Source: an uncultured Chloroflexia bacterium (GTDB lineage: Bacteria; Chloroflexota; Anaerolineae; Anaerolineales; UBA4823). Taken from it: a stretch of DNA of 64,000 nt. The notes beneath the pieces were generated by a model. It made no database searches, had not been told where the DNA came from, and saw only the letters and a list, made by a program, of their open reading frames with translations. Position numbers and translations under genes: made by a program. Location of the stretch: NCBI GenBank assembly GCA_963743215.1, contig CAVUOY010000007.1, positions 121,019 to 185,018 on the forward strand, read 5' to 3'. Shown here piece by piece: positions 2,446-30,438 of the stretch; the stretch's first letter is position 1, and each line of letters begins with the position of its first letter.

Positions 2446-2578
2446 TCTTCCCCGATGGATAGGTTATACTTAATAGTGAAAAATTTCCTTTATAGAACTC
2501 GCTTCTCCCTGCAAATTATCATCCAGACTTGCTTGGGTGGGTCTGCAAGACTATTTACACCAAGCGGAGGACAAAATA

Positions 2579-2752
2579 ATGGGTGACGCAACAGCCAATC
2601 CAATATATATCGCAATGCTTTGTATTCCGCGTTGCCTGGTGCCTTTGTTGATCTTATTCGGGGTTTCTTATCTGCTACGTCGTTTCGGAGTAATCGCAAA
2701 ACCTGCTCCTCCTTCAGACGAATTTCAAAAAAGTGATGAGAATAGTAATTAA
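2579..2752 (+). CDS. small single-pass membrane protein, hypothetical
   Basis: GGAGG RBS 8 nt upstream of ATG 2579; one hydrophobic helix (IYIAMLCIPRCLVPLLILFGVSYLL); its stop sits inside the RBS of the next gene. Confidence 0.35.
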   Translation: MGDATANPIYIAMLCIPRCLVPLLILFGVSYLLRRFGVIAKPAPPSDEFQKSDENSN

Positions 2753-2765
2753 GGAGGATCGGGAA

Positions 2766-4613
2766 ATGTCAAAGTCTTCTATCGTCAATAAAATGCCCGG
2801 TATATTTCTACTATTGGGTTTCCTCGTCCTGCTTAGCTTGATTTGGGTTTCTCCTTCCCAGGCCAGCCAGCCGAAACAGCAAACCGAAGAATATTGTTTA
2901 AGCTGCCATTCCAATTCTGATCTTTCACTTACCCTCCCAAGTGGCGAGACCCTTTCGTTATACATCAATTCTGACGAGTTACAAACCTCCGTCCACAGTC
3001 CGAATGGGATTGAATGCGAAGCCTGCCATACCAACATTACCACCTACCCTCATCCGGCGATTAATTACCAGAACAAGCGCGAATTAACCAGAGTTTATTA
3101 CACCGCCTGCCAGAAATGTCACCCCGATAACTATTCAAGGACTCAGGATAGCATGCACGCTCAGGTCGCTGAAGCAGGCAATCTCAACGCCCCCGTATGC
3201 ACTGATTGCCATGGATCCCATTATATCCACCCACCCAGTGAACCGCGCACCTTGATCCCGGAGACGTGTGGCAACTGTCACACCCAGGAATTTTCCGTCT
3301 ACCAGGCCAGCGTGCATGGGAATGCCTTGATTCAGGAATCAAATCCCGATGTTCCCGTCTGCACTACCTGCCATGGTGTGCACAATATTCACGACCCACG
3401 CACCCAGCAATTCAGGGTGCAGGAACCCGATTTATGCGCTAGCTGTCACGCAAATCAAGAAATGATGGCTAAATACGGCCTATCGGCCGACGTGTACAGC
3501 TTGTACAGCCTATCCTGGCATGGTGTGGATGTATCCATTTACCAGGCCCGCTGGCCAACAATCCAGCATACCTCTGCCGTATGTACCGATTGCCATGGCA
3601 TCCATGACATCCTAAAGCCTGACGATCCGAGCTCATCAGTCAATCCGAAAAACCTGCTGGTCACCTGCCAGAAGTGTCACCCGGGTGTCAGCTCGAATTG
3701 GACCGGCGCGTGGACCGGACATTACAAAGTCAGCCTACAGCGAACCCCAATTCTATTCTACGTCGATTCTTTTTACTCGATTTTTACGCCTGCCATCCTG
3801 TGGATTTGTGGGATATACGTTGCCCTTCAATTCATAAGGTTTATGGTTGATCGAGTAAGGAGGAAGCTTATGACCAACCAACATCCACCCAGCTCTATCT
3901 CACCGAATCATCCCGTCAGGTTGGTACGCACTTTTCCGCGCTTCAGCGTCAGTCAGCGTTCGGAACATGCAGTTTTTCTCCTTTGCATTGCAATCCTCCT
4001 GCTTACCGGTTTACCCCAGAAATTTAACACCTCCACCTGGAGTCAGGCGATCATCTCTTCACCTGACAGGTTGAACCTGATCCAGCAAATACACCATATC
4101 ACTGCATTGGTTCTATCCGCCCTGGTTTTATACCACCTGGGACGGGCGATTTACCTCATCGCCAGGCGGAAACTACCCGGTGATATGCTACCAACATTTC
4201 AGGATGTGAAAGATGCCTGGAATATGCTGCTCTACCTTATTTTCATAAAAAAACAGAAGCCTGCTTTTGGGAAATTCAATTTTGAGCAAAAGGTCACCTA
4301 TTGGTTCCTGTTCTTTTCAGTCGGGATCATGATCGTCTCCGGTTTTATCATGTGGTTTCCAGACGTGGTCACCCGCCTCCTACCTGGTGGAGTTATCCCA
4401 GGTGCGATTATGGCTCACAGTACAGAAGCGATCGTCACGATCATTTTTGTGATCCTCTGGCATTTCTACCATGTGCATCTCGAGCGTCTCAACCTGAGCA
4501 TATTTTCCGGCTGGCTAAATGATGAAGATATGCGCAGCTATCATTCCCTTGAATATGACCGGCTGATCAACAAGTCTCATACCGATCAGGATCCAGGAGA
4601 AATGAAGTCATGA
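2766..4613 (+). CDS. nonahaem cytochrome c fused to FdnI/HydC-type dihaem cytochrome b (CbcL-like)
   Basis: Signal/anchor helix, 9 CXXCH motifs, then a 4-helix domain with RSEHAVFLLCIAILLLTGLPQKF and WHFYHVH typical of formate-dehydrogenase gamma / Ni-Fe hydrogenase b-type cytochromes; AAGGAGG RBS. Confidence 0.85.
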   Translation: MSKSSIVNKMPGIFLLLGFLVLLSLIWVSPSQASQPKQQTEEYCLSCHSNSDLSLTLPSGETLSLYINSDELQTSVHSPNGIECEACHTNITTYPHPAINYQNKRELTRVYYTACQKCHPDNYSRTQDSMHAQVAEAGNLNAPVCTDCHGSHYIHPPSEPRTLIPETCGNCHTQEFSVYQASVHGNALIQESNPDVPVCTTCHGVHNIHDPRTQQFRVQEPDLCASCHANQEMMAKYGLSADVYSLYSLSWHGVDVSIYQARWPTIQHTSAVCTDCHGIHDILKPDDPSSSVNPKNLLVTCQKCHPGVSSNWTGAWTGHYKVSLQRTPILFYVDSFYSIFTPAILWICGIYVALQFIRFMVDRVRRKLMTNQHPPSSISPNHPVRLVRTFPRFSVSQRSEHAVFLLCIAILLLTGLPQKFNTSTWSQAIISSPDRLNLIQQIHHITALVLSALVLYHLGRAIYLIARRKLPGDMLPTFQDVKDAWNMLLYLIFIKKQKPAFGKFNFEQKVTYWFLFFSVGIMIVSGFIMWFPDVVTRLLPGGVIPGAIMAHSTEAIVTIIFVILWHFYHVHLERLNLSIFSGWLNDEDMRSYHSLEYDRLINKSHTDQDPGEMKS

Positions 4614-6058
4614 GGGCTGTAAGAACACACCTGTTTTTATACTTTATTGGTGTAATCCTCATCGGCAGCATTACCATTTTGCACTTTGCAACGGAGGCGA
4701 ATGCGGCACCAATCGAACAAGCCTCCCAAAACAACATTCAACAGCAGGGTTTGCCAAATGTGACTTCGGCTGAACCCATTGTGAGTAACGAAACCTGCTT
4801 GGAATGCCATGACCAGCCAGGGCTAACGATGACCCTTCTGAATGGGGATGTTCTGGATCTTTACGTCAATCCCGACGTTTATTCGGCCTCTATCCATGGT
4901 AAGGATGGGTATGCCTGTGTTCAATGTCATACCAACCTGGGAGAATATCCGCATCCCTTATTTACCGCAACCAGTCTTCGTGACGCTACGCTTCGCTTGA
5001 CTAACTTGTGTGACCGCTGTCATTCGGGCGAATATAACCTGACCATGGATAGTGTCCATTATGATAAGCTGGCTATCGGCATTAAAGAAGCCGCCGTTTG
5101 CACAGATTGCCATGGGTCACATGATGTGCATCAGTGGATCGACCCCAAAACCCAGGAAATACTACCCGAAGCCCGGCTAAGTATTCCTGCCACGTGTTCC
5201 AAGTGCCATAATGCAATCTATCAAAAGTATCGTACCAGCGTACACGGTGCTGCGCTGACCGATGAAGCAAACACGGATGTCCCCACCTGCATCGACTGCC
5301 ATGGGGTTCATAATATCGGGAATCCAACGACTGCAGAGTTCCGCCTAAAATCGCCTGAACTTTGTGCCGGTTGCCATACAAACCCCAATTTAATGGACAA
5401 ATACGGGATTTCTACCAATGTCTTGAATACCTATGTGGCTGATTTCCATGGTACAACGGTCACATTATTCGAGAAGCAATCCCCCGACGCTCAAACGAAT
5501 AAACCGGTTTGTTATGACTGCCATGGTGTGCACGACATCACCCGGGTGGACGACCCGAAAACCGGGATTGATATGCAGCAAAATCTCCTGGTGCGCTGTA
5601 AAGTCTGTCATCCCGATGCCACCAGCAATTTCCCTAGCGCCTGGATGTCTCATTACATCCCCTCGCCAGACCACTACTCCCTGGTTTATTACGTTGATCT
5701 ATTTTATAAATTCTTTATTCCAGCAGTCCTTGGTTTTATGCTAGCCATGGTTGGACTGGATGTAGGTCATACCGCCTTTATTAAAACACGGCGTGGAAAA
5801 CGTCATCTCGAACCCACCTCAACCCAGGCTCAAACAGATACAGCACCCGAATCATCCACGCTAGCTCCCTCGAGTGCAGAGGCTACCGACCAGCCAGTTC
5901 TATCTGAGAATGTTGAGATTAAGGGTGAACATAGTGAGCAAAGTGAGCTGAGTGCGCTCAACATGCCACTAGAAGAAGGCAACCAGGCTGATCAAAAAGA
6001 GGAAACCCAACCAGATAATCAGAGCGAAAATCCTGATGAGGAGGTGACCCATGAGTGA
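4610..6058 (+). CDS. nonahaem cytochrome c, membrane anchored, acidic low-complexity C-terminal tail
   Basis: ATGA start/stop overlap with upstream gene; 9 CXXCH motifs collinear with the c-domain of 2766-4613; C-terminal TM helix then about 100 aa rich in E/Q/S/T. Confidence 0.85.
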   Translation: MRAVRTHLFLYFIGVILIGSITILHFATEANAAPIEQASQNNIQQQGLPNVTSAEPIVSNETCLECHDQPGLTMTLLNGDVLDLYVNPDVYSASIHGKDGYACVQCHTNLGEYPHPLFTATSLRDATLRLTNLCDRCHSGEYNLTMDSVHYDKLAIGIKEAAVCTDCHGSHDVHQWIDPKTQEILPEARLSIPATCSKCHNAIYQKYRTSVHGAALTDEANTDVPTCIDCHGVHNIGNPTTAEFRLKSPELCAGCHTNPNLMDKYGISTNVLNTYVADFHGTTVTLFEKQSPDAQTNKPVCYDCHGVHDITRVDDPKTGIDMQQNLLVRCKVCHPDATSNFPSAWMSHYIPSPDHYSLVYYVDLFYKFFIPAVLGFMLAMVGLDVGHTAFIKTRRGKRHLEPTSTQAQTDTAPESSTLAPSSAEATDQPVLSENVEIKGEHSEQSELSALNMPLEEGNQADQKEETQPDNQSENPDEEVTHE

Positions 6059-15174: not shown

Positions 15175-17397
15175 ATGAATTACAAGAAATATCTTATTGT
15201 CGGTTTGCTGCTGATTGGCCTGGCTCTGGCCATAGCGGCCTGTTCGAGTCCACCTGCAACTACCGCTGTGGTACCACCCACTCAGGCATGCCCGACATGC
15301 CCTGCAGCTCCAGCTTGCCCGACAGCAGAGCCTTGCCCTGTTCCTGTGGTCGCAGATGTGCCATTTCAAGAAGCCTGGGTGAATTCTCCCCACGCTGATG
15401 CGACCGCTGAGGCATTCCGCCATTGGGATGAGGATGATCCGAAAGAAGTCCCCACCAGTTGTGCCAAATGCCACACCCCCACCGGTTATATGGATTTCCT
15501 GGGTGCCGATGGTTCCGCAGCTGGTGTTGTGGATGCCGCCCAACCAGTCAGCAATGGTATCACCTGTGTTGCCTGCCATAACGATACTGCCGCTGCCCTT
15601 TCTGAAGTGACCTTCCCTTCCGGAGCAGTTGTCTCAGATCTGGGTCCTTCAGCACGCTGCATGGTTTGCCATCAGGGTCGTGCATCTGGTGCCGATATTA
15701 ACGCCCAAATCGCTACCAATGTCCTGACTGACACGCTTGACACTGTCAGCACCGAGCTAAAATTCACCAACATCCACTATTTCGCAGCAGCCTCAACATT
15801 ATATGGTAGTGTGGTGAGTGGTGGTTACCAATATGCCGGCAACGAATACGATGGCAAGTTCCAACATGCTGGTGGGTTAGATTCCTGCATAAATTGCCAT
15901 AATCAGCATACACTGGAAATCAGAGTCGAAACTTGCCAGGAATGCCATACCAACGTCTCTTCTAAAGCAGATTTGGTAAACATCCGTATGAATGGCTCCC
16001 TTGAAGACTATAATGGAAACGGAGATGTCACCGAAGGGATTTCAGCTGAAGTTTCCGGTCTCCAGAGTATGCTTCTGCAGGCTATCCAGGCTTATGGAAA
16101 AGAGGTCGCCGGCACACCCATTGGATATGACGCAGCCACTAACCCGTACTTCTTCATCGATACCAATGACAATGGAACCATTGATGCTGACGAAGCCAAC
16201 TCGGATAACCGCTATGCTTCCTGGACCGGTCGGCTGTTGAAGGCTGCATTTAACTACCAGCTTTCAATCAAAGACCCCGGCGCTTTCGCTCACAATGCCA
16301 AGTATGTCATTGAGCTGGTGTATGACTCAATCGCTGACCTGAACACTAAACTGGCTTCACCGGTCGATCTCACCAAGGCTCATCGCACAGATGCAGGGCA
16401 CTTCGCAGCCACAGAGATGGCTTTCCGTGATTGGGATGGTGAAGGTGCTGTACCAGCCACCTGCTCCAAATGCCACTCGGCCACAGGATTGCCTCTATTC
16501 ATACATGAAGCAGCTGCTTCCAGTGACGGCGTTACCGGTGTGACGATTAGCCAACCCGTCTCACAGGGTTTCGCCTGCACAACCTGCCATGATGGCTCCA
16601 ACTTCCCCGCCACTTACGCGGTAGAAGCGGTGAAGTTCCCAAGTGGATCCATCCTTACCTTTGGAGATGAAGCTCCAGCTAACATATGTATTGAATGCCA
16701 TCAGGGTCGCGAATCCACCGTTAGCGTCAATAAAGCGATTGGTGATAAACCTGCTGACACCGTCGATGCCACCTTGCGCTTCAGAAATCCGCACTATTTT
16801 GGTGCTGGTGCCACGTTATTTGGAACCGAAGCTCAAGGAGCCTATGAATATACTGGTAAAACATACCTGGGACATCATGCTCACGTAGATGCTGGTCAAT
16901 CATGCGTAACCTGCCACAATGTACATGATTTATCAATCAACACTCAGCTTTGTGCAGGCTGCCATGGTGGTGCTACCGAACCGGAAAAAATCCGCATGGG
17001 AACCACCGACTATGACGGTGATGCCAATACCACCGAAGGCATGTACGATGAAGTTGCCACCGTGGAAGAACTGCTCCTGGCCGCAATTCAGAAGTATGCT
17101 ACTGATAAAGCAGGCTCTCCGGTTGTATACGATGCCGCATCCTACCCGTATTTCTTCATCGATACGAATGCAAATGGTGTTGGCGATCCAGACGAATTAG
17201 TCAGAGCTAATGGTTATGCTTCCTGGACGCCTCGCATGCTCCGCGCATCCTACAATTACCAGTGGGTCCAGAAGGATCCGGGTGCCTTTACTCACAATGG
17301 CAAGTACATCTTGCAAGTCCTATATGACAGCCTCCAGGATGTCGGCGGTGATGTTACGAAGCTGACCCGCCCAGTAATCCCTGCTGTTACCCCATAA
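15175..17397 (+). CDS. decahaem cytochrome c lipoprotein with internal two-fold (2 x 5 haem) repeat
   Basis: Signal peptide with lipobox LAIAAC; Cys/Pro-rich tether; 10 CXXCH (5 per half); halves aa 70-390 and 407-725 align motif by motif; GAGGAGAG RBS. Confidence 0.85.
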   Translation: MNYKKYLIVGLLLIGLALAIAACSSPPATTAVVPPTQACPTCPAAPACPTAEPCPVPVVADVPFQEAWVNSPHADATAEAFRHWDEDDPKEVPTSCAKCHTPTGYMDFLGADGSAAGVVDAAQPVSNGITCVACHNDTAAALSEVTFPSGAVVSDLGPSARCMVCHQGRASGADINAQIATNVLTDTLDTVSTELKFTNIHYFAAASTLYGSVVSGGYQYAGNEYDGKFQHAGGLDSCINCHNQHTLEIRVETCQECHTNVSSKADLVNIRMNGSLEDYNGNGDVTEGISAEVSGLQSMLLQAIQAYGKEVAGTPIGYDAATNPYFFIDTNDNGTIDADEANSDNRYASWTGRLLKAAFNYQLSIKDPGAFAHNAKYVIELVYDSIADLNTKLASPVDLTKAHRTDAGHFAATEMAFRDWDGEGAVPATCSKCHSATGLPLFIHEAAASSDGVTGVTISQPVSQGFACTTCHDGSNFPATYAVEAVKFPSGSILTFGDEAPANICIECHQGRESTVSVNKAIGDKPADTVDATLRFRNPHYFGAGATLFGTEAQGAYEYTGKTYLGHHAHVDAGQSCVTCHNVHDLSINTQLCAGCHGGATEPEKIRMGTTDYDGDANTTEGMYDEVATVEELLLAAIQKYATDKAGSPVVYDAASYPYFFIDTNANGVGDPDELVRANGYASWTPRMLRASYNYQWVQKDPGAFTHNGKYILQVLYDSLQDVGGDVTKLTRPVIPAVTP

Positions 17398-24784: not shown

Positions 24785-25773
24785 ATGAAGATTGCGTTTA
24801 CAGGTGCAGGCTATATTATCAACATCCATGCCCAGGCTGCTGCCCAGCAGCAGGATGTGGAGCTTTTTGCTATTGTTAACCGATCTTCAGAAAAAACTCG
24901 CGGTTTAATGCGAAAGTTCAACATCCAGCATCAGTTCGAGACCGTTGAACAGCTGCTTGCCGCAGGTGGGGTGGATGTGCTGGTGGTTGGCACGCCCAAC
25001 TATTTACACGCTTCGCAGGCTATCACTGCGCTAAAAGCCGGTGTGCATGTGATGGTCGAGAAACCTATGGCGATGAATGCCCAAGAAGCCTGCCAAATGT
25101 TGGCAGCCAGCCGAGAGTCCGGATCTCTTTAATGGTCGCGCATTGCTGGCGCTTCGACCCGGAGGTCTTATGGTTACGCCAGCAAGTTGATACAGGCCGC
25201 CTGGGTAAGATTATCCGCACCAAAGGCTATGGCGTGCATACCCATTGGGGACCCTCGGGTTGGTTCACCGAGAAGAAATACGCCGGTGGTGGAGCCATGG
25301 CCGACGTGGGCATTCATGCATTGGATACCGCCCGGTTTCTGCTTGATGATCCCCAGCCGGAATCCGTATATGCGCGTATCGGCACATATTACACATCTCA
25401 GGATGTGGATGATACCGGCATATTGATCGTCAATTGGGATATTGGTGCGGTATCGTACATTGAGTCGGGCTGGTGGCAGCCTCACGCCGATGGTCCTGAA
25501 GCTGCTACCCAGCTGTATGGGACTGCAGGGTTTGGGCAGATATATCCCACCTATTTACAACAGCAGTCGGAAAAAATCGATCCTGGGTTTCCCTACCCTC
25601 GTACTGACCATGCTCCGCAAAGCCTATACAACGATCAGATGAATTACTTTATCCAATGCATACGCCAAAATCACCAGCCAAACCCAGGTGGACTTGAAGG
25701 GTGGATTAACATGAAGATCATTGATGCAGCCTATAAAAGCTCAACCACAGGTCAGGTCGTTACGGTGGAGTGA
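24785..25773 (+). pseudogene. Gfo/Idh/MocA-family oxidoreductase, split by a 1-nt frameshift at 25128-25132 (pseudogene or sequencing error)
   Basis: ORF 24785-25132 is the NAD-binding Rossmann half (KIAFTGAGYI...VMVEKPMA), ORF 25132-25773 the C-terminal half (VAHCWRFDPE); span is 3n+2. Confidence 0.75.
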
Positions 25774-26757: not shown

Positions 26758-26911
26758 TTTATACCCATACTTTTTACACCCCGCTAATAACAACAGTCTC
26801 TTCGGGTGCATTTGGAACCAGGCAAGGGGGTGATGAAGCCATATTAAACAGCATTTCTGTGGCTAAATTGTACACAAGCTTAATTTTTGATGAACATATC
26901 GAATATCATAA

Positions 26912-26940
26912 TTGACAAGCTTGAGTATTGTGAGTATATT
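26912..26940 (+). promoter_or_regulatory. putative sigma-70-type promoter upstream of the duplicated binding-protein gene
   Basis: TTGACA (26912-26917), 17-nt spacer, TATATT (26935-26940); implies a leader of roughly 310 nt. Confidence 0.4.
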
Positions 26941-27259
26941 AACAAGTGAATCCCTTGTCTCTCGGGGTGAATCATATTTAACCAGATTGCACAATAATGT
27001 AAGGAACAAGTCACCACTATTACGATCAAATCACAAGGGCATGTTTCACACAGACGTAAAGGTGTAATGGTGGTGGTCAATGATTCCTAGTTTTTTTAGT
27101 CTGGTCTGAATATCCATAATTAGAAGGTCTGCTACCTGGAGATTCATTGGTACCTTTGAAAGGAGGGAAGTTGAGGGAAATTGATAATCGTAGTAAAGTT
27201 GTAAAGAACCAAATAAAATCTACTAACAAGCTTGTATTAAGATACTAGGAGGAGTAATC

Positions 27260-29446
27260 GTGTTAAAGAATAGTAAGTTAAACGCCATATTATCCATCTT
27301 GTTTGTGGCTGCGATGGTCCTGTCAGCCTGTGCGACAGCAACTACAGCTCCCACCACTGCCCCGCAAGAAACCGCCGTTCCCCAGGCAACTCAGCCTCCT
27401 GCGGCTAAGTTGTCTGTCGGCGTAGTTCTCCCTACCAAGGATGAACCCCGCTGGATCCAGGACGAGACTCGCTTCAATGATGCCTTCAAGGCTGCCGGAT
27501 ACGACGTTCAGATCCTCTTCAGCCAGGGTGATTCCGCCAAGGAAAAAGCCAACGTTGAAGCGCTGATCGCTCAGGGTATCAAAGTCCTCATCATCTGCCC
27601 ACAGGATGCCACTGCGGCTGCTGCTACTGCTGATGAAGCTAGAGCGGCAGGCGTCAAGGTCATCTCTTACGACCGCCTGATCCGCGACACTGAAGCCGTC
27701 GATTACTATGTCACCTTCGACAGCGTCTCGGTCGGCAAGGCACAGGGCCAGTACCTGATCGATAAGGCTACCGGTACCGGCAACCCACTCTACCTGTATG
27801 CTGGCGCTGCCTCTGACAACAATGCCTTCCTGTTCTTCCAGGGTGCCTGGGAAGTATTACAACCCAAGATCGTCGACGGCACCTTTGTCATCAAGAACTC
27901 CAGCGAAGCCATTGCACTGCAAGACAAGGCCACCCTTACCCGTGATGAGATGGGCAAGATCATCGGCCAGGTTACCACCGACTGGAAGTTCGATGTTGCC
28001 AAGAACCTCGCTGAAGCCAACCTGACCGCTGCTGCTGCTACCGACAAGGGCAATGTCTTCATCCTCGCCCCCAACGATGGCACAGCCCGCTCCATTGCCG
28101 ATGTTTTTGCTGCTGACAAGGATGTCACCAGCTACGTCGTCACCGGGCAGGATGCTGAGGAACCTTCCGTCCAGTACATCATCGATGGCAAGCAATCCAT
28201 GACCGTCCTGAAGGACGTCCGCACGCTCGTTAGTGATGCCATCGCCGCTGCGGTTGCTTACCTGAAGGGTGGTGCTCCTGAGCAGACCACAACCTACAAC
28301 AACGGCAAGATCGATGTCCCTGCCAAGCCGTCTGTAGTAGTCAGCGTCGATCAGAGCAATGTCGTTGCTGCTGTGATCGACTCTGGTTATTGGCCAGCTG
28401 CTGACTTCAAAAACATAGATCAGATTGGCAAGATTGCTGTTGGCGTTATTCTCCCGACCAAGGATGAACCTCGCTGGATCCAGGACGAGACTCGCTTCAA
28501 GGCTGCCTTCAAGGCTGCCGGATACAGCGTCCAGATCCTCTTCAGCCAGGGTGATTCCGCCAAGGAAAAAGCCAACGTTGAAGCTCTGATCTCTCAGGGC
28601 GTCAAAGTCATCATCATCTGCCCACAGGATGCCACCGCGGCTGCTGCTACTGCTGATGAAGCTAGAGCGGCAGGCGTCAAGGTCATCTCTTACGACCGCC
28701 TGATCCGCGACACCGAAGCCGTCGATTACTATGTCACCTTCGACAGCGTCTCGGTTGGCAAGGCACAGGGCCAGTACCTGATCGACAAGGCTACCGGTAC
28801 CGGCAACCCACTCTACCTGTATGCTGGCGCTGCCTCTGACAACAATGCCTTCCTGTTCTTCGAGGGTGCCTGGGATGTACTACAACCCAAGATCGTCGAC
28901 GGCACCTTTGTCATCAAGAACTCCAGCGAAGCCATTGCACTGCAAGACAAGGCCACCCTGACCCGTGATGAGATGGGCAAGATCATCGGCCAGGTTACCA
29001 CCGACTGGAAGTTCGATGTGGCCAAGAACCTCGCTGAAGCCAACCTGACCGCTGCTGCTGCTACCGACAAGGGCAATGTCTTCATCCTCGCCCCCAACGA
29101 TGGCACAGCCCGCTCCATTGCCGATGTTTTTGCTGCTGACAAGGATGTCACCAGCTATGTCGTCACCGGGCAGGATGCTGAGGAACCTTCCGTCCAGTAC
29201 ATCATCGATGGCAAGCAGTCCATGACCGTCCTGAAGGACGTCCGCACGCTCGTTAGTGATGCCATCGCCGCTGCGGTTGCTTATCTGAAGGGTGGTACTC
29301 CTGAGCAGACCACAACCTACAACAACGGCAAGATCGATGTCCCTGCCAAGCCGTCTGTAGTAGTCACGGTTGACAAGTCCAATGTCAAAGCCGCTGTGAT
29401 CGACTCCGGTTATTGGCCGGCTAGCGACTTTACTGGATTACCATAA
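27260..29446 (+). CDS. tandem-duplicated (two-domain) ChvE/xylose-type periplasmic sugar-binding lipoprotein
   Basis: GTG start after AGGAGG; lipobox LSAC; two complete type-I sugar-binding domains (aa 50-390 and 391-728) about 95% identical. Confidence 0.85.
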   Translation: MLKNSKLNAILSILFVAAMVLSACATATTAPTTAPQETAVPQATQPPAAKLSVGVVLPTKDEPRWIQDETRFNDAFKAAGYDVQILFSQGDSAKEKANVEALIAQGIKVLIICPQDATAAAATADEARAAGVKVISYDRLIRDTEAVDYYVTFDSVSVGKAQGQYLIDKATGTGNPLYLYAGAASDNNAFLFFQGAWEVLQPKIVDGTFVIKNSSEAIALQDKATLTRDEMGKIIGQVTTDWKFDVAKNLAEANLTAAAATDKGNVFILAPNDGTARSIADVFAADKDVTSYVVTGQDAEEPSVQYIIDGKQSMTVLKDVRTLVSDAIAAAVAYLKGGAPEQTTTYNNGKIDVPAKPSVVVSVDQSNVVAAVIDSGYWPAADFKNIDQIGKIAVGVILPTKDEPRWIQDETRFKAAFKAAGYSVQILFSQGDSAKEKANVEALISQGVKVIIICPQDATAAAATADEARAAGVKVISYDRLIRDTEAVDYYVTFDSVSVGKAQGQYLIDKATGTGNPLYLYAGAASDNNAFLFFEGAWDVLQPKIVDGTFVIKNSSEAIALQDKATLTRDEMGKIIGQVTTDWKFDVAKNLAEANLTAAAATDKGNVFILAPNDGTARSIADVFAADKDVTSYVVTGQDAEEPSVQYIIDGKQSMTVLKDVRTLVSDAIAAAVAYLKGGTPEQTTTYNNGKIDVPAKPSVVVTVDKSNVKAAVIDSGYWPASDFTGLP
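27407..29446 (+). repeat. in-frame tandem direct repeat, period 1023 bp (unit A 27407-28429, unit B 28430-29446)
   Basis: Offset of 1023 nt seen between matching DNA blocks and between the twin antisense shadow ORFs 27790-28128 / 28813-29151; scattered synonymous differences. Confidence 0.9.
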
Positions 29447-29466
29447 GATTACTTTTTTCAACAACG

Positions 29467-29502
29467 CAGGAATAGTGGTGCATTTCCACCACTATTCCTG
29501 CA
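29467..29502 (+). other. perfect 15-bp stem-loop without U tract
   Basis: GCAGGAATAGTGGTG (29467-29481), loop CATTTC, CACCACTATTCCTGC (29488-29502). Confidence 0.6.
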
Positions 29503-29533
29503 GTTATCCTGAAATTTGCACTTTGACATACGA

Positions 29534-29570
29534 AAAAGGTCAGGTTGATCAAATCTGACCTTTTTGTTAA
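29534..29570 (+). terminator. rho-independent terminator between binding-protein and ATPase genes
   Basis: AAAAAGGTCAG (29534-29544) / CTGACCTTTTT (29556-29566) followed by GTT; A-run upstream gives bidirectional potential. Confidence 0.7.
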
Positions 29571-29633: not shown

Positions 29634-30438
29634 ATGGAAACCACAAAAGATACCACACCAGTCGTGGAAATGCGGAACATCAAGAAGAACTTTCGGTGCC
29701 GTCCAGGCATTGAAGGGTATTGACCTGACCTTGCAGCACGGTGAAGTCTTGGGTCTGGTCGGCGACAACGCAGCTGGCAAGTCCACCTTGATGAAGGTGC
29801 TCAGTGGTGCCTACATCCCTGAAGAAGGAGAGATCCTTATCGAGGGTAAGAAGCAACATCTGACAGATCCCCTGCATGCGCGTCGCTTGGGCATTGAGAT
29901 GGTATACCAGGATCTGGCGCTTGCCAACAACCTTGATGTCACCTCCAACGTTTTCCTTGGACGGGAATCGGTCAGCACCCAACTCGGATCATTTAGTGTT
30001 CTGAATACCCGGCGCATGGAGCAGGAGGCGAAACGCCTGCTCGATCGTCTCAAGATTGATATCCCTTCTGTGCGTTTGTTGGTGGAGAGGCTGTCCGGTG
30101 GTCAGCGCCAGGCCGTCGCCATTGCACGTGCCATGGCATTCAATTCCAAGGTGATCATTATGGACGAGCCCACTGCGGCTTTGAGTGTGGCAGCCATCAG
30201 CAAGGTCCTTGAACTGGTGCGCGAGCTCAAAGCGCAGGGTGCTTCCATCATTATCATCAGTCACCGCTTGGAAGATATCTATAGCGTGAGCGACCGCTTG
30301 ATGGTGATGCGTAATGGCCGTAAGGTCCGCGACTGCCAGATCAATGAAAACATCGATGAATTTCGCGAGCGTGTAGTCGCCTATATGATTGGCGCTCGTG
30401 ATGATTTTGCACGTGAAGCCGACGTCGCTGCTGTTTAA
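29634..30438 (+). pseudogene. ABC sugar transporter ATP-binding protein (single NBD), N-terminal 20 codons out of frame (1-nt insertion at 29694; pseudogene or sequencing error)
   Basis: ATG 29634 gives [20 protein letters not shown]; skipping C at 29694 continues [31 protein letters not shown] (Walker A), LSGGQRQ signature, Walker B IIIMDEPT. Confidence 0.8.

Follow-up and report, generated by a model that had tools for sequence, protein, structure and literature searches.

Why would a bacterium build a sugar receptor with its complete binding domain present twice, in two nearly identical copies? The question is raised by an open reading frame (ORF) of 728 aa with a GTG start, located at positions 27260-29446 (+) of a 64,000-nt stretch of DNA from an uncultured member of the Anaerolineales (contig CAVUOY010000007.1 of assembly GCA_963743215.1; this whole stretch is hereafter called the window). 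A first-pass annotation, made from the letters alone, had described the product as a sugar-binding lipoprotein whose binding domain is doubled by an in-frame 1023-bp tandem duplication. We find that two bodies, or three in some lineages, are the common state of this protein across the class Anaerolineae. In the following, WIN denotes the gene of the window, L numbers denote related genome loci, P numbers denote database proteins, and D1 and D2 are the first and second binding body of one gene.

Two complete binding bodies on one lipid-anchored chain

When the ORF was compared with itself at successive offsets, a single sharp peak stood out at 1023 nt: identity across the entire overlap was 86% there and ≤33% at the other offsets. 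A separate repeat search of the window again returned a spacing of 1023 nt; it displayed only a 300-nt reference copy, and the unit limits used here were set by the scripted self-comparison. Tandem Repeats Finder, whose longest period is 500, did not report a 1023-nt repeat. The units are in frame and identical at 957 of 1014 nt (94.4%), leaving 57 aligned sites that differ. These affect 44 codons, 24 synonymously and 20 non-synonymously, so that 20 amino-acid differences separate the units over 338 positions, four of them being the last four residues of the unit. Two blocks of 83 (unit positions 62-144) and 140 residues (150-289) are identical. The near-identity described in the first-pass annotation is therefore real, while its counts (about 15 substitutions, blocks of 80 and 136 residues) were too low. 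Every residue pair that it quoted (FNDAF/FKAAF, GYDVQ/GYSVQ, IAQGIKVLI/ISQGVKVII, FFQGAWEV/FFEGAWDV) is present, as are its synonymous DNA differences, and the differences do cluster at the unit ends as it had said: the fraction of differing sites is 9% over nt 1-200, falls to 1.8% over nt 200-930 and rises to 27% over the final 84 nt. Between the units, identity is unbroken for at most 137 nt (permutation p = 0.015).

Translation bears out the signal peptide with lipobox and the Thr/Ala/Pro linker. The N-terminal sequence MLKNSKLNAILSILFVAAMVLSAC meets the lipobox pattern L-[AS]-[GA]-C, and Leu21 and Cys24 are nearly invariant (≥90% conserved) among 77 aligned homologues. An AlphaFold model of the didomain, built on 77 homologues, predicts a disordered tether (predicted local distance difference test, pLDDT, <50 at residues 17-49) followed by two well-folded bilobed bodies (pLDDT 80-95), whose relative orientation is without confidence (predicted template modelling score, pTM, 0.57). 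The proposed pair of complete xylose/ChvE-type folds is borne out both by this model and by two full Peripla_BP_4 domains: the profile (Pfam PF13407) matches at E = 5.5e-91 in two stretches, both of which span 1-257 of its 258 positions. Among solved structures, 4RXU, the single-body Caur_1924 of Chloroflexus aurantiacus, comes closest (template modelling score, TM, 0.94; 77% identity; E = 1e-166), and the next Foldseek matches are ChvE and Escherichia coli XylF (TM 0.86-0.91), to which the unit is 33% (3URM) and ~28% (3M9W/3MA0) identical, respectively. No PDB chain in the structure search spans both bodies (TMq ≤0.45). Unit 2 ends in ...DFTGLP*, as the single-body orthologue 4RXU does (...DFT.LP), and so carries the ancestral C-terminus.

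We take the sugar contacts of XylF to be R16/W17, D90/R91, N137, N196, D222 and K242. The two units agree in all six motifs that align with XylF and ChvE (EPRW, YDR, SDNN, PND, GQDA and TVxK), and these motifs do not vary in either body of any of the 77 aligned homologues. All 20 residue differences between the units lie outside the invariant columns of this alignment. Disabling changes in the ligand residues of one unit, named by the first-pass annotation as evidence against its proposal, were looked for and not found. Both bodies probably bind the same sugar, most plausibly a hexose or pentose as for the ~77%-identical Caur_1924; the ligand in 4RXU is presumably D-glucose.

Against the NCBIfam model of ChvE (NF040907), the protein reaches 491.6 bits as the sum of two stretches (cut-off 460), each body scoring well below. 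The permease of the window scores 382 against GguB (NF040906; cut-off 450), and its ATPase, at half length, 171 against GguA (cut-off 810). Given these sub-cut-off scores, the system is ChvE-like rather than a ChvE equivalog. Binding protein, ATPase and permease together are predicted to form an ATP-binding cassette (ABC) importer of the ChvE-GguAB / XylFGH type, from an Anaerolineaceae bacterium.

The doubled architecture is common across Anaerolineae

Relatives were sampled as the 120 best database homologues of the protein (74-90% identity) and as the best 80 of at least 579 related stretches, one genome per species. Among the 120 proteins, two bodies were found in 115 and three in 6, with none single. 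At species level, 61 of the 80 loci are two-bodied, one (L043) is three-bodied and nine carry a single body with both flanks present; contigs end inside the repeat at three loci (L065, L066, L075). The loci come from Anaerolineales, Ardenticatenaceae, Caldilineaceae, Promineifilum, Thermoflexia and others, and the doubled ones include the isolate Ornatilinea apprima P3M-1 (L019) as well as long-read contigs of metagenome-assembled genomes (MAGs). The closest locus, L001 from an Anaerolineaceae MAG, is 90% identical and has the identical junction KNIDQIGKIAVGVI between the bodies, which also recurs in P0009 and P0012. An ATPase gene lies beside the binding-protein gene at 79 of the 80 loci, and a permease gene at 76.

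The first-pass annotation had proposed to date the duplication through single-domain orthologues in relatives. The doubling is not specific to this genome, and what was to be dated turns out to be a class-wide architecture of two or three bodies. Databases label the homologues only as 'sugar ABC transporter substrate-binding protein'. In the PDB and the literature searched, we found no characterised free doubled binding protein of the CUT2 type, in agreement with the first-pass annotation, and no description of the architecture. The architecture is thus family-wide and well supported, and it is unreported in the literature searched.

Copy number may differ even between close relatives. P0054, which has at least three bodies, shares 97% identity per body with the two-body proteins P0047 and P0056, and L077 has one body where L003 has two at a nucleotide distance of 7%; L077 is a short-read assembly and possibly collapsed. 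At a further locus (L022), a separate single-body paralogue (806-1816; 86% nucleotide identity) lies ~0.7 kb upstream of the doubled gene (2557-4611), adding a gene-level duplication to the domain-level one.

The bodies of one gene evolve in concert

Within a protein, the bodies have a median identity of 0.964, whereas bodies of different proteins are 0.81 identical regardless of whether D1 is compared with D1, D2 with D2 or D1 with D2. Not one alignment column of 117 two-body proteins holds a residue that marks D1 against D2. At the DNA level, D1 and D2 of the same gene are 0.79-1.00 identical (median 0.947), and the median identity at third codon positions is 0.89 within genes versus 0.49 between species. 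This excess means that constraint at the protein level cannot explain the similarity of the copies. A neighbour-joining tree pairs D1 with D2 of the same gene as sisters at 49 of 58 loci. Along the unit, differences within a protein amount to 0.1-0.45 of the between-protein level in the interior and come near to it only at the unit ends.

The quartet formed by both bodies of WIN and of L001 has the same layout. At 49 sites, spread across nt 23-911 of the unit, the paralogues agree, while the orthologues agree at 14 sites, most of them near either end of the unit (nt 6-18 and 870-1009) and two at 73 and 96. The duplication therefore predates the split of the two organisms, and the centre was homogenised afterwards. 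Such a combination of orthologous ends and homogenised centre indicates gene conversion, of which it is a signature. The direction of conversion, sought by means of the L001 allele at homogenised WIN sites, gave an uninformative mixture.

Synonymous divergence (dS) between D1 and D2 forms a continuum from 0 to 1.34, with dS = 0 at six loci; L011 and L044 have retained orthologous D1 and D2 pairs at dS 0.7-0.8. The ratio of non-synonymous to synonymous divergence (dN/dS) between the bodies has a median of 0.115 and does not exceed 0.27 in the 41 genomes with dS >0.05, stands at 0.25 between the units of the window, and ranges from 0.05 to 0.14 in old pairs (dS 0.5-1.3). A ratio of ~0.1 over the whole continuum implies that both bodies have long been under purifying selection, and the earlier impression that both units are maintained is upheld by these ratios and by the invariant binding motifs.

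The junction between the bodies is 8-25 residues long, varies in length and sequence even among close relatives and in many cases replicates the N-terminal tether. Three-body forms arose in several lineages, and in each of them its own copies are most alike. Variable junctions and a copy number of one to three point to repeated unequal crossing-over besides conversion. In summary, these comparisons show that concerted evolution keeps the copies within a gene near-identical, with conversion homogenising the centre of the 1-kb unit and leaving its ends orthologous. The near-identity of the two units, by this evidence, is not proof of a recent duplication and reflects concerted evolution instead.

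A permuted binding unit in the ATPases of relatives

Around the common binding protein and permease, three operon types can be told apart by their ATPase gene (loci L001-L080). An ATPase of ~240-265 aa with a single nucleotide-binding domain (NBD) occurs in the window and at L001, L002, L015, L016, L025, L028, L033 and L037. Most loci have a canonical double-NBD ATPase of ~500-540 aa, and the third type has an ATPase of 852 aa with a permuted insert.

At least 8 of the 80 loci carry this gene for an ATPase of ~852 aa, flanked by the genes for the doubled binding protein and the permease; seven were confirmed as continuous ORFs (Table 1). The order is NBD1, residues ~69 to the end of the binding unit, an Ala/Pro/Ser-rich junction, residues 1 to ~68 of the unit, and NBD2. 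The insert is hence a complete but permuted binding unit, and it retains the junction that leads from body 1 to body 2. Its breakpoints are equal in all seven continuous ORFs; it is a feature of relatives and not of the window. ATPases bearing the insert form at least 120 distinct clusters, nearly all of 851-854 aa, every sugar-binding motif is invariant in the insert, and AlphaFold folds it confidently (pLDDT 85-97) between both NBDs. The structure search yielded no solved structure with an NBD1-permuted unit-NBD2 architecture.

The insert looks like an out-of-phase, unit-length piece of the tandem gene, running from the middle of body 1 through the junction to the middle of body 2, that was copied into the neighbouring ATPase gene, which would be a case of 'permutation by duplication'. 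As it has no signal peptide, it should be cytoplasmic, and we conjecture that it could sense sugar there and regulate the pump.

The same binding domain occurs in other fusions as well. It is joined to Ser/Thr protein kinases in P0129 and P0134, stands in tandem with other binding-protein folds in P0131 (Peripla_BP_6) and P0132 (PBP_like_2), and is combined with leucine-rich repeats (LRR) in P0173 and P0258, the latter also having S-layer-homology domains. Just upstream of the doubled gene of L009, a 529-aa ORF (4170-5759, +) combines ABC_tran with a histidine-kinase core (HisKA_3 + HATPase_c).

The operon and its surroundings

The coordinates of all features are collected in Table 1. The binding-protein gene is preceded by an AT-rich non-coding region of 500 nt (26758-27259), in which the promoter-like site lies ~320 nt 5' of the start codon and implies a long leader; an Rfam scan of this leader gave no family match. 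Of the two strong hairpins that follow the gene, the second (29530-29567) is flanked by an A-run and a U-run and resembles a terminator or attenuator. As a pair, the hairpins may serve as an attenuator or mRNA stabiliser that raises the output of binding protein over that of the membrane components. They have no Rfam match.

Table 1 Coordinates of the doubled receptor gene, its operon and related features (window positions unless a locus is named)
Feature	Position	Strand	Basis and remarks
Promoter-like TTGACA-17-TATATT	26912..26940	+	Consensus scan, 11/12 matches; pattern match only
Shine-Dalgarno AGGAGG	27247..27252	+	Read from sequence; 7 nt before GTG
Signal peptide and lipobox L-S-A-C; Cys24 = predicted lipidation site	27260..27331	+	Translation
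Thr/Ala/Pro-rich tether, residues 25-49	27332..27406	+	Translation
Repeat unit 1: complete ChvE/XylF-type body and short junction KNIDQIG	27407..28429	+	Self-comparison, Pfam, AlphaFold, Foldseek
Invariant body-1 residues	R64 W65 D138 R139 D186 N187 N188 N272 D273 Q297 D298 K318		77-homologue alignment
Repeat unit 2: complete second body	28430..29446 (aligned part to 29443; stop 29444-29446)	+	Self-comparison, Pfam
Invariant body-2 residues	R405 W406 D479 R480 D527 N528 N529 N613 D614 Q638 D639 K659		77-homologue alignment
Two strong hairpins between binding-protein and ATPase genes	29463..29567	+	RNA fold -65.2 kcal/mol, z = -7.7 vs shuffles
Single-NBD ABC ATPase gene	29635..30438 (listed intact ORF 29710-30438)	+	Pfam ABC_tran
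GguB/XylH-like permease (BPD_transp_2), 393 aa	30459..31640	+	Pfam, NCBIfam
~852-aa ATPases of relatives	L009:8275-10836; L027, L038, L040, L050, L052, L053, L064	+ (L009)	Proteins P0271-P0389, P0127

The permease is encoded by a separate gene 1 kb downstream, and the binding protein ends after unit 2 without a transmembrane fusion. The ATPase gene between them is interrupted: compared with the closest relative L001, it has an extra C near 29699 (AACTTTCGGTGCC versus AACTTT-GCTGCT), and this 1-nt insertion cuts the true ATG at 29635 off from the listed ORF. Upstream, the neighbours are a LacI regulator, a CUT1 sugar ABC system, a GFO/IDH/MocA oxidoreductase and a NagK-like kinase. The GFO/IDH/MocA gene (24785-25773) is likewise split, into overlapping ORFs of 115 aa and 213 aa with a frame change near 25118-25132. 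Because this second split gene lies 4.5 kb upstream, the frameshift in the ATPase gene may instead be an assembly indel; two indels within 5 kb suggest such errors, the alternative being real pseudogenes. Farther upstream of the sugar-uptake cluster, a 740-aa ORF (15175-17397) has several multihaem cytochrome c matches (Cytochrome_C7, c3, paired CXXCH).

A receptor with two equivalent bodies and its alternatives

We consider it probable that the protein is the lipid-anchored receptor of a monosaccharide ABC importer, with two equivalent bodies that are a class-wide trait and are kept alike by concerted evolution. Chloroflexota are generally regarded as single-membrane bacteria. With a single membrane, binding proteins would be tethered and could not diffuse freely, and the number of receptors per transporter would be limited by membrane area. 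Identical bodies strung on one anchor could then provide more capture sites and a higher local receptor concentration beside the translocator, and either body could dock on the single translocator. Homogenisation, in turn, would keep every body matched to one docking surface of the permease. We regard this avidity or capture idea as plausible, by analogy with known tandem receptors.

Several observations weigh against this reading. Single-body orthologues exist, some of them on long-read contigs (L072, L078), and the doubling is therefore dispensable. Loci with 100%-identical copies and single-copy loci from short reads may be artefacts, which would blur the copy-number statistics. The frameshift in the ATPase gene could mean that the operon is inactive in the source organism, gene conversion may follow neutrally from tandem homology without having been selected for, and the benefit of doubling is argued from likeness to the amino-acid importer GlnPQ.

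More tentatively, and with odds that we would put somewhat below even, the equivalent-bodies reading can be extended to a receptor array that is maintained by recombination. Copy number, at one to three, would then act as an evolvable dial for capture capacity, selection, and not just the mechanics of tandem homology, would keep the bodies identical so that each suits one permease, and the permuted ATPase insert would be a product of the tandem gene and a probable sensor.

A different account would hold that the duplications are neutral and short-lived, arising repeatedly in separate lineages and soon lost, without conversion or function, so that near-identity merely reflects youth. We think this unlikely, even if the variation of copy number from one to three among relatives and the six loci with dS = 0 would be expected from it, and even if the differing junctions of close relatives, many of which replicate the tether, suggest separate duplication breakpoints. 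Two-body forms dominate both samples (115 of 120 proteins and 61 of 80 species loci), WIN, L001, P0009 and P0012 have their junction in common, and the WIN/L001 mosaic needs conversion after speciation. Furthermore, the pairs with dS 0.5-1.3 keep a dN/dS of 0.05-0.14, which points to copies that were retained for long.

It is less probable still that one body is the working receptor and the other a spacer projecting it from the membrane, with copy number setting the reach. A pure spacer needs neither ligand motifs that are invariant in both bodies of 77 proteins nor an equally low dN/dS, and a hinged binding protein of 340 residues would make an odd rigid stalk. The notion draws on the near-identical DNA repeats and variable copy number, which recall variable-length repeat surface proteins, and on the AlphaFold model, which gives no fixed packing between the bodies.

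The first-pass annotation had also allowed for two specificities serving one translocator. GlnPQ has tandem domains of different specificity, its substrate-binding domains SBD1 and SBD2 (PMC8025302), and more distant two-body CUT2 proteins do have diverged bodies (64% identical in P0122, 55% in P0173), which could have split functions. For the protein studied here, we regard different specificities, present or emerging, as very improbable: the bodies in the window share 94% identity and agree at every invariant and motif column, the median identity of copies is 96%, the ligand motifs are identical, no column distinguishes D1 from D2 in the 117 two-body proteins, and within-protein differences in the unit interior reach only 0.1-0.45 of the between-protein level.

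Finally, we give almost no credence to an assembler having expanded a single 1023-nt unit. In favour of such an expansion, near-repeats of 1 kb are difficult for assemblers, two probable indel errors lie in the window, and three related contigs (L065, L066, L075) stop inside the repeat. Against it, the two copies are told apart by 57 aligned sites and by their ends, and their junction is in frame; the junction and the layout are also found again in independent assemblies, in the genome of an isolate and on long-read contigs.

Textbooks know tandem binding domains only from permease-fused amino-acid importers. With two equivalent bodies on one anchor, the principle would extend to free lipid-anchored sugar receptors, and would be the normal state in a whole bacterial class, the Anaerolineae, which comprises abundant environmental and wastewater bacteria. 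The family also offers a clean bacterial case of concerted evolution within a gene, with a functional unit of 1 kb kept uniform for long periods even at its synonymous sites, and its copy-number variants could serve as natural experiments on receptor stoichiometry in ABC import. For annotation, near-identity of tandem units must not be taken for recent duplication, and short-read assemblies may collapse doubled genes or break within them. In addition, the tandem form would be the intermediate long postulated in the circular permutation of binding proteins, with the putative permuted product residing in the adjacent gene of relatives.

Comparison with known systems

Caur_1924 (4RXU), ChvE and XylF are the nearest relatives of known structure. 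They share with the window protein the fold of the unit, its motifs and the operon type, with a GguB/XylH-like permease and an ABC ATPase. All three are single-bodied, whereas the window protein has two bodies, and its relatives up to three, on one lipid-anchored chain. Moreover, the ATPase of the window is a half-size, single-NBD protein, unlike those of ChvE/XylF-type operons.

In its recombination behaviour, the gene recalls the 'periscope proteins' reportedly described by Whelan et al. in PNAS in 2021, variable-length surface proteins that Gram-positive bacteria build from near-identical domains in tandem. Both have in-frame repeats that are near-identical at the DNA level and recombinational homogenisation, and copy number may likewise differ between close relatives. 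The repeats of periscope proteins are small stalk domains in many copies, whereas the repeat described here is a 340-residue receptor in one to three copies, in a lipoprotein of an ABC importer.

In its tandem arrangement, the protein resembles amino-acid importers of the GlnPQ type from Lactococcus lactis, in which tandem binding domains that differ in specificity and affinity are fused to the permease (PMC8025302, PMC11331510). Both systems have two consecutive binding domains on a single chain, which is held beside the translocator, and both domains are available for delivery. The GlnPQ domains are permease-fused, of the amino-acid type (class F) and divergent, in contrast to the near-identical, sugar-type bodies of a separate lipoprotein. 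Tandem periplasmic-binding-protein folds outside the membrane are also found in the Vibrio cholerae diguanylate cyclase CdgH, whose PBPb sensor domains are arranged in this way (PMC5431781). CdgH is a signalling protein with diverged domains of another class and not the receptor of a transporter.

The permuted insert has its counterpart in Treponema pallidum TpMglB-2 (Tp0684), a circularly permuted, glucose-binding lipoprotein of cluster B whose origin was left unexplained (PMC4990184). In TpMglB-2, the first strands of the N-lobe (~65 residues) have moved behind the C-terminus, a breakpoint of the same kind as in the ATPase insert of Anaerolineae. TpMglB-2 is a free extracellular lipoprotein; the window protein is unpermuted and has the tandem form that can yield such a permutation when cut.

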